This document shows positions 6,852-7,439 of a stretch of 13,632 nucleotides of DNA, in pieces (positions within the stretch are counted from its first letter, which is position 1; each line of letters begins with the position of its first letter). The DNA is taken from UHGV virus genome UHGV-1808101; one strand, written 5' to 3'. A program made the position numbers and the translations under genes. Below the pieces are notes generated by a model. It saw only the letters and a list, made by a program, of their open reading frames with translations, was not told where the DNA came from and did no database searches. The stretch is from a virus.

Positions 6852-7138
6852 CGGGCAAAGAGGCAATTATTCATTACCTCGTGGCGCATAAGAACTTCTG
6901 TGCACAGGACGTTTCCGCGGTAACAGGCGCAACCGTAACCAGTATAAATCAGGCTGCGGCTAAAATGGCGCGGGCAGGAATCCTTGTCATTGATGGTAAG
7001 GTCTGGCGAACGGTGTATTACCGGTTTGCTACCAGGGAAGAACGGGAAGGAAAGGTGAGCACGAACCTGATTTTTAAGGAGTGTCGCCAGAGTGCAGTGA
7101 TGAAACGGGTATTGGCGGTATATGGAGTTAAAAGATGA
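6848..7138 (+). CDS. ren: Ren (Rex exclusion-relief protein), 96 aa
   Basis: MTGKEAIIHYL…AAKMARAG…GKVWRTVYYRFATREEREGK… matches recalled lambda Ren; ATGA overlap with the P stop. Confidence 0.85.
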   Translation: MTGKEAIIHYLVAHKNFCAQDVSAVTGATVTSINQAAAKMARAGILVIDGKVWRTVYYRFATREEREGKVSTNLIFKECRQSAVMKRVLAVYGVKR

Positions 7139-7227
7139 CCATCTACATCACTGAGCTTGTAACAGGCCTGCTGGTAATCGCAGGCCTTTTTATTTGGGGA
7201 AGAGTAATTGGAGGCTTTAAGAAATGA
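7135..7227 (+). CDS. Candidate small hydrophobic membrane peptide, 30 aa
   Basis: ATG overlaps the ren stop (ATGA), GGAG 8 nt upstream; MTIYITELVTGLLVIAGLFIWGRVIGGFKK is one predicted transmembrane helix with a basic C-terminus; its stop overlaps the next ATG (ATGA). Confidence 0.4.
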   Translation: MTIYITELVTGLLVIAGLFIWGRVIGGFKK

Positions 7228-7439
7228 GTACGATAGCTGAGCTTGTCAGGGCTAATTTTCGTGAAGAGTTGGTGCGTTGGTATCGGTATCGTTCATCGTC
7301 CAGTTTGCCGCTTGATGAGTTGTATGAGCATTCACCTGCCGCACGACGCTATCCGCGTGACCGTGTTCTTCGACGGTTGTTCAAACTCAACAATGAGTTT
7401 CAGCGCAACAGAATTATCCGGAGTCTGGATTTAAAGTGA
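7224..7439 (+). CDS. Hypothetical basic protein, 71 aa
   Basis: GGAGG upstream; translationally coupled to the preceding small ORF; Arg-rich; no motif recognised. Confidence 0.5.
   Translation: MSTIAELVRANFREELVRWYRYRSSSSLPLDELYEHSPAARRYPRDRVLRRLFKLNNEFQRNRIIRSLDLK

Follow-up and report, generated by a model that had tools for sequence, protein, structure and literature searches.

In phage lambda, the terminator tR2 and the small gene ninA lie together between ren and ninB (40568-40648), and RNA polymerase modified by the N protein reads through tR2. The name ninA reportedly goes back to Kroger and Hobom in 1982, who are said by later papers to have described the ATGA overlaps as a 'chain of interlinked genes'. 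In both lambda and P22 the literature counts ninA as one of the nin genes, and in P22 the corresponding open reading frame (ORF) is annotated as 'ninA' (YP_063725), with an internal terminator. In a two-reporter system, lambda tR2 gave about 90% termination with an upstream stop codon more than 30 nucleotides (nt) away, and about 80% with an upstream stop at 18 nt and native flanking sequence (PMC4824070). Here we analyzed the corresponding locus in a 13,632-nt stretch of viral DNA, UHGV virus genome UHGV-1808101 (the window), in which two coupled small ORFs had been noticed downstream of ren. The first of them, of 30 amino acids (aa), is the already named ninA and contains tR2, while the second, of 71 aa, belongs to the family DUF7301. 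The locus is an ordinary one, and ninA, tR2, and DUF7301 are all already known. The features of the locus are as follows.

6848-7138, + strand: ren gene, 96 aa (ORF list; phrog_142, Ren-like exclusion protein, E=6e-40; 'protein ren' in the annotation of an identical prophage by the Prokaryotic Genome Annotation Pipeline, PGAP)
7124-7127, + strand: Shine-Dalgarno motif GGAG for ninA, 7 nt ahead of the ATG (from the sequence)
7135-7227, + strand: ninA ORF, 30 aa, MTIYITELVTGLLVIAGLFIWGRVIGGFKK (ORF list; phrog_5907; PhiR12 and P22 annotation; tblastn)
7135-7163, + strand: conserved 5' block, ninA codons 1-10, MTIYITEL[V/I]T (coding-type substitution pattern)
7164-7187, + strand: tR2 hairpin, with arms AGGCCTGC (7164-7171) and GCAGGCCT (7180-7187) and loop TGGTAATC (7172-7179) (terminator scan, fold, identity to lambda and P22)
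7187-7195, + strand: T-tract of tR2, TTTTTATTT, encoding Leu-Phe-Ile of the peptide (sequence, terminator scan)
7210-7214, + strand: Shine-Dalgarno motif GGAGG of the DUF7301 gene, within the ninA tail (Gly-Gly codons) (from the sequence)
7224-7439, + strand: DUF7301 gene, 71 aa, isoelectric point (pI) 10.8, predicted two-helix hairpin (PF23975, phrog_1785, alignment, AlphaFold2)

A terminator scan found an 8-bp stem with six G-C pairs and an 8-nt loop followed by TTTTATTTGG at 7164-7197, within the ninA ORF, and the hairpin at 7164-7187 appeared in both the minimum-free-energy and the centroid folds. Positions 7164-7195 are identical to lambda tR2 downstream of ren in NC_001416, and positions 7160-7195 are the TR2-cut oligonucleotide aacaggcctgctggtaatcgcaggcctttttatt that represents lambda tR2 in the supplement of PMC4824070. 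The hairpin is also identical to the one annotated inside P22 ninA as a 'terminator ... similar to phage lambda'. Furthermore, the supplementary primer that 'mutates start codon of NinA', tatggagttaaaagAAGaccatc, corresponds to 7121-7143 of the window, and the Shine-Dalgarno region of the window, tatGGAGttaaaagATG, is the same as that mutated there as the NinA start codon (PMC4824070). Because the small ORF matches lambda, the P22 annotation, the tR2 oligonucleotide, and the NinA start-codon primer, we identified it as ninA with a tR2 core. By sequence identity, the core of 7135-7227 is the lambda intrinsic terminator tR2, and this identity would carry over its function as well, which is to stop unmodified polymerase after ren. 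No Rfam family spans the terminator. The ren stop codon is 25 nt from the tR2 stem in the window, and terminated transcripts are expected to have their 3' ends in the T-tract, at codons 20-21 and upstream of the ninA stop.

The assignment of the ORF agrees with the profile match (phrog_5907, E=4.4e-17, residues 1-26) and with the PhiR12 phage records, which annotate an identical 30-aa ORF as 'NinA protein' (100% by tblastn). The original prediction had described two ORFs within 7135-7439, with ATGA overlaps at both ends of the first and a GGAG of its own, and all of these are present, the ORFs at 7135-7227 and 7224-7439 and the GGAG at 7124-7127. The ren stop codon TGA (7136-7138) overlaps the ninA ATG (7135-7137), the last codons of ren contain the ninA Shine-Dalgarno motif, and the ninA stop codon TGA (7225-7227) overlaps the ATG (7224-7226) of the 71-aa ORF. 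It had also warned that the small ORF could be missed by routine annotation, which is the case, as 7135-7227 was left unannotated by PGAP in the 100%-identical RefSeq prophage of E. coli SCU-104 and is likewise absent from the lambda RefSeq record. The ORF is nevertheless not an overlooked gene, since it is already ninA and annotated in P22. Moreover, the verdict 'function unknown' missed the established role of this DNA in N-sensitive transcription termination, as the terminator inside the ORF had not been noticed. A text search of the literature found no mention of the peptide string or of 'DUF7301'.

Lambda and the window share their sequence from the ninA Shine-Dalgarno motif within ren through the T-tract but for three substitutions (codons 5, 8, and 9), an Ile-to-Val change among them. 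Lambda ninA is in the same place after ren and has the same ATGA overlaps at both ends, but it has 26 codons and the tail GRGKS followed by ninB, whereas the window has 30 codons and the tail GRVIGGFKK followed by DUF7301. Codon 22 is GGA in the window and GGG in lambda, which weakens the GGGGGAGAG motif behind the terminator of the window. P22 ninA (YP_063725) is 100% identical over residues 1-23 by tblastn, has the same hairpin, and overlaps both of its neighbors. It differs in having the gene 12 helicase upstream instead of ren and ninB downstream, and in its length of 26 aa.

The hydrophobic character of the peptide comes from the terminator. The three frames through the terminator read RPAGNRRPFYLG, GLLVIAGLFIW, and ACW*; one contains a stop, one is polar, and only the used frame is open. 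The used frame is hydrophobic because of the CTG- and GGC-type codons of the stem and the T-tract. The Gly-Leu-Leu-Val-Ile-Ala-Gly-Leu-Phe-Ile-Trp core is tR2 read in its sole open frame. The hydrophobic stretch covers 19 residues (Ile3-Trp21) with one Glu and is followed by basic residues, with a grand average of hydropathy (GRAVY) of 1.25, and its composition is dictated by the terminator. What had been proposed as a single hydrophobic helix is mostly tR2 nucleotides in translation. The tail has a similar origin. The GGFKK end of VIGGFKK is GGAGGCTTTAAGAAATGA, the ribosome-binding site and start codon of DUF7301 in another frame, and GGAGGyTTTAAGAAATG also precedes DUF7301 in prophages with other genes between tR2 and DUF7301, beyond any ninA frame.

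To compare relatives, we used about 135 loci from IMG/VR and reference phages. Residues 1-23 of ninA are almost invariant across these loci, while the tail varies with the downstream gene, as in the following combinations.

Tail GRGKS: downstream gene ninB, junction ATGA
Tail GRVNRG: downstream 68-aa membrane ORF, junction GTGGCTGA
Tail GRGK: downstream 92-aa ORF, junction GTGA
Tail GRVIGGFKK: downstream DUF7301, junction ATGA

The end of ninA coincides with or falls a few bases from the start of the next gene, and this overlap geometry holds in about 115 loci. Among intact-cassette relatives ninA is 20-34 aa long, typically 24-30 aa. By tblastn against phages the ninA ORF recurs in 387 phage records, beyond what chance would give. 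The conserved GGGGGAGAG after the T-tract (Trp-Gly-Arg codons) is also the Shine-Dalgarno motif for a direct follower (ninB, the 68-aa ORF, or the 92-aa ORF). At 7196-7204 of the window GGGGGAGAG is weakened to GGGGAAGAG, and DUF7301 supplies its own GGAGG.

Seven unrelated upstream gene ends were found (that of ren, several of helicase or P type, and others), and in each of them the stop codon overlaps or abuts the ninA ATG (ATGA, TGATG, or TAAATG). A Shine-Dalgarno motif is located 6-8 nt ahead of the ATG in 7/7 of these contexts, which at a background of 0.057 has a probability of about 2e-9. These seven motifs, together with the touching stop codons, are good evidence that initiation at the ninA ATG is selected. 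Of the variant types in codons 2-10, 8 are synonymous and 3 are non-synonymous but conservative, and second positions do not vary (binomial P=0.0015 against 26% expected synonymous). The 5' block is retained ahead of three different hairpin alleles and also ahead of an HNH gene insertion. Peptide-level constraint is confined to the first ten residues, and the rest of NinA is weakly constrained.

In the hairpin and T-tract (32 nt) there are five variable sites, and where the canonical stem varies, either wobble pairing is still allowed or the basal pair is the one affected. No base substitution was found in the T-tract in about 120 canonical-hairpin loci, and one excluded locus (L048) has an extra T. 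Downstream of the T-tract variation is relaxed and includes Trp21stop. Behind the same 5' block there are two more hairpin alleles, AGGGGCTATT...AGTAGCCCTT and GGCCACT...AGTGGCC, in which the GC-rich stem and the T-tract are kept by compensatory changes. Because the alternative alleles hold the hairpin in this way, selection on RNA structure is supported. Natural alleles also break or alter the ORF. Leu13Gln, within the loop, was found at 8 loci. Others carry Trp21stop, a T-tract whose altered length throws the frame out, or a deletion of 1 nt, and in one the stop codon is lost and ninA is fused to DUF7301. The fusion occurs in one E. coli assembly (P0003), in which TAA has become TTA and NinA is joined in frame to DUF7301 in a predicted protein of 101 aa. 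Phage HF4s (L142) carries an alternative hairpin allele with a T-tract one T shorter, so that the ninA frame is fused to a downstream Lar-like ORF and annotated as one 153-aa 'hypothetical protein'. In the same phage the junction GGACGTATGACCATC is tandemly duplicated ahead of ninA (360-480).

In several prophages (L010, 6334-7060; L140, 636-1375; also L090, L128, L147, and L150) ninA is interrupted after codon 10 by a gene for a 203-aa HNH/AP2 endonuclease, placed exactly on the 5' edge of the tR2 stem. An intact tR2 hairpin follows directly behind the insert, and this edge is also where the alternative hairpin alleles begin to diverge. The product resembles a homing endonuclease directed at the highly conserved ninA/tR2 sequence, and the 5' edge of the hairpin is a recurrent point of recombination and of homing-endonuclease insertion. 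We considered a hairpin-less 34-aa hydrophobic allele, MTIYITELIAGLSLLMVLTVYIIKYILYANKKTN, as support for a membrane peptide and rejected it, as it is ninA codons 1-10 fused to the inserted endonuclease gene.

A degenerate pattern of the 5' block was also searched against representative genomes. Among the matches listed most were chance matches, and the few true copies were mostly low-coverage contigs identical to lambda, with no new hairpin diversity. These were short contigs identical to lambda ren-ninA-ninB in representative assemblies of Pseudomonas, Oceanobacillus, Bradyrhizobium, Psychrobacter, and Pseudoxanthomonas (L162, L216, L221, L226, L230, and others), with about 1x coverage where the title states it. 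The non-enteric contigs are almost certainly contamination with lambda control DNA.

In lambda, a reporter with the native 48 nt upstream showed that the NinA start is 'not weak' and that it halves upstream reporter expression, which was restored when the NinA ribosome-binding site or AUG was silenced (PMC4824070). Translation of NinA reduced termination at tR2 by only about 10% in the reporter, and for NinA the paper also cites ribosome profiling of lambda (PMC4824070). Together with the conserved Shine-Dalgarno motif and the synonymous pattern, these results suggest that ninA in the window is probably translated, as had been predicted. We consider it likely that 7135-7227 is a ninA/tR2 cassette that divides the replication genes from the nin region, is gated by N, and is translated mainly for roles on the same mRNA, and that the DUF7301 gene behind it is genuine. 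Roles on the same mRNA are favored, since constraint is apparent in no more than ten residues and broken alleles are in circulation. Two further genes are needed to follow this proposal.

1299-1682, - strand: N-like antiterminator gene (phrog_271, 'anti-termination protein N-like', E=1.5e-38)
7450-7686, + strand: Lar-family restriction-alleviation gene, next in the gene chain (PF14354, TIGR03655, phrog_599, PGAP annotation)

About 90% of the unmodified polymerases from pR would be stopped at tR2 after ren, and the N-like protein would let polymerase past tR2 into DUF7301, lar, and ninB and on to Q. The terminator would so gate delayed-early expression. Ribosomes might re-initiate at 7135, continue across the terminator when the RNA has been read through, and finish on the DUF7301 start codon. 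On read-through transcripts, translation would keep the gene chain covered with ribosomes from ren over the terminator to the first nin gene, and DUF7301 would be translationally coupled to ninA wherever it is directly behind the cassette. On terminated transcripts, translation of ninA would yield a message without a stop codon. Possible reasons for the selected translation are therefore several: the ribosome-covered gene chain, a tuned leakage of tR2, the stop-less terminated RNA, or a role for the peptide or for its N-terminus.

The cassette resembles the leader-peptide attenuators (trp, pyrBI), in which a short translated ORF likewise overlaps or abuts an intrinsic terminator and the position of the ribosome can affect the hairpin, and the position-effect study of tR2 itself draws this comparison (PMC4824070). 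Unlike these attenuators, ninA/tR2 has no alternative antiterminator hairpin and no regulatory codons, it is controlled by the N protein, and the shift in lambda termination caused by NinA translation in the reporter was small.

Several points weigh against this reading. Termination, read-through, and translation in this prophage are all transferred from lambda on the strength of matching sequence, and we only infer that translation acts as a relay. Coupling may be unnecessary, since each downstream gene is served by a Shine-Dalgarno motif (GGGGGAGAG after the T-tract in most relatives, GGAGG at 7210-7214 here). The purifying selection on the first ten codons goes beyond a purely same-mRNA role and leaves room for a peptide function. 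In addition, the hairpin is less variable than the 5' block, but the difference is not significant (Fisher p ~0.2).

The alternative that best survives takes NinA for a small membrane protein with a function of its own, which might be that of a toxin or of a modulator acting on a host membrane protein, while the terminator merely shares its codons. The original prediction had pointed this way, and the 19-residue hydrophobic stretch with its basic residues fits it. So do the translation signals kept in all seven upstream contexts and the purifying selection on the ten N-terminal codons, and an alternative hairpin allele also spells a hydrophobic, aromatic sequence, GAIYTVALFYW. However, the core of the peptide is set by the bases of tR2 and its tail by the ribosome-binding site of the neighbor. 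Strong constraint is also hard to reconcile with the natural alleles, which put Gln in the middle of the helix (Leu13Gln), end the frame at Trp21, shift it by +1 or -1 in or after the T-tract, or fuse it to DUF7301, and with the endonuclease gene that splits the ORF after codon 10. No match to ninA was found in Pfam, NCBIfam, or PADLOC, and expression from the multicopy reporter was not reported to be toxic (PMC4824070).

Hydrophobic peptides of less than 35 aa, type I toxins among them (TisB, Ibs, ShoB, and Hok), are similar to NinA in size, in having a basic end, and in their location in prophages or accessory regions, and NinA may also share their single hydrophobic helix. Unlike these toxins, ninA has no family match and no cognate antisense RNA, and it has natural nonsense and frameshift alleles. 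A scan for promoters found one weak minus-strand site (7440-7413, 9/12 matches), and the two sites counted compare with 2.4 expected by chance, so that no antisense promoter of the type I toxin sort stands above chance. Likewise, no Rfam small RNA was found at the ninA locus. Lambda phages with the nin5 deletion, which lack ninA, are viable, and this also counts against a membrane protein. We therefore regard a membrane protein or toxin as unlikely.

Alternatively, ninA might serve to make tR2-terminated transcripts stop-less, so that tmRNA (transfer-messenger RNA) is recruited and the O-P-ren message is degraded faster without N, and intrinsic termination would in this way be coupled by design to trans-translation. 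The position of the expected RNA end, upstream of the ninA stop codon, agrees with this, and the authors of the reporter study ascribe the halved upstream expression, and its recovery when the start was silenced, to non-stop decay of terminated transcripts (PMC4824070). However, trans-translation is the authors' interpretation of a result from a reporter, and both the purifying selection on the N-terminus and the placement of the stop codon at the start of the next gene would be left unexplained. As the purpose of ninA, this seems improbable. A more elaborate proposal, to which we give little credence, is that ninA is dual-coded, with a decapeptide under protein-level selection. Read-through RNA would then yield a small membrane peptide and hand ribosomes over to the first nin gene, while terminated RNA would recruit tmRNA and give a shorter-lived O-P-ren transcript. 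If true, a dual-coded ninA would be a built-in link of intrinsic termination, trans-translation, and the timing of the replication genes.

Finally, it is very improbable that the ORF is functionless, with a frame that stays open by chance over a conserved terminator and recombination linker, since, although 30 codons are short enough for chance, conservation stops just past the T-tract, broken alleles exist, and PGAP and the lambda RefSeq record omit it, seven unrelated gene ends present the Shine-Dalgarno motif and a touching stop, codons 2-10 vary in a periodic and synonymous way, and the NinA initiation site is active in the lambda reporter (PMC4824070).

The 71-aa protein is a typical member of DUF7301 (PF23975), with 91.5 bits against a gathering cut-off of 27 over residues 1-64 of the 65-position model, and of phrog_1785 (E=2e-33). 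It matches over its full length and is 97-99% identical to the commonest clusters. It had been described as Arg-rich, and it has 16 Arg and Lys residues and a predicted pI of 10.8. The family is small, with 34 clusters at 90% identity, while a profile search gave just 46 representatives at 50%, and it was found only in Escherichia and Salmonella prophages. Its members diverge to about 57% identity, with 28 invariant alignment columns including YPRDRVLRRL. AlphaFold2 predicted helices at residues 4-25 and 44-69 with moderate confidence (predicted local distance difference test, pLDDT, 76). PDB holds no protein that matches in sequence, neither PDB nor BFVD gave a similar fold (best E>2), and no match was found in PADLOC. 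DUF7301 is the first gene after tR2 or follows one to three inserted genes, and the gene behind it is variable (lar, ninB, or a 140-aa ORF and then dam). Because its neighbors vary, the context suggests no functional partner. The direct ninA-ATGA-DUF7301 junction was also found with DUF7301 alleles that share about 62% identity with the one in the window, and with a helicase gene upstream, and thus the junction is recurrent but not obligatory. From its profile matches and predicted structure, DUF7301 appears to be a genuine gene for a small, basic, probably helical delayed-early accessory protein, without detectable relatives of known function.

Part of 7100-7460 was found in 1976/5426 complete E. 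coli genomes, about a third of them. PGAP omits both ninA and tR2, and so small-ORF scans will keep finding ninA again. A 30-codon frame after ren (or P or a helicase gene) in lambda-like prophages should be labeled as ninA with an internal tR2 and not as a candidate new toxin. The locus is a clean and very widespread example of one 60-nt stretch that is at once a terminator, a coding sequence, and a module junction. The current understanding of lambda regulation is unchanged. The comparison sharpens an old question, namely why lambdoid phages translate across tR2, and the residual interest lies in the unexplained selection for translation over the terminator.

The window is a lambdoid prophage that is essentially identical to the one in E. 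coli SCU-104. Its gene order is kil, cIII, N, cI, cro, cII, O, P, ren, the two small ORFs, lar, ninB, dam, ninE, two antirepressor genes, ninG, and Q. The cassette is located at the boundary between the replication module and the nin region of the early-right operon, and N-like and Q-like proteins are both encoded in the window. The N-like ORF (1299-1682, - strand) encodes 127 aa. In the identical prophage PGAP annotates no more than a pseudogene of 69 nt ('regulator, incomplete') at the 3' end of this ORF, and N is probably under-annotated in the SCU-104 RefSeq prophage.

Three genes on the - strand (2178-2798, 2795-3283, and 3300-3641) fill the slot between cI and N where lambda has rexAB. 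One of them, a DUF3024 gene, has a match in PADLOC to PDC-S43, a candidate defence family (E=7e-42), while the other two match solely PHROGs of unknown function. These genes may be prophage-borne defence cargo. A weak tRNA-like Rfam match at 11799-11868 was not confirmed by ARAGORN. Within the nin region, Rfam matches to isrK, the c4-a1b1 target, and C4 antisense RNA were found at 8816-9014 (+ strand), just upstream of two Ant-like antirepressor genes (9067-10568), and this region is an antisense control module of the P1/P7 style. The STnc100 small RNA family was found twice, at 12700-12905 and 13183-13392 (+ strand; 165 and 141 bits), downstream of Q, TerB, and DUF3927.

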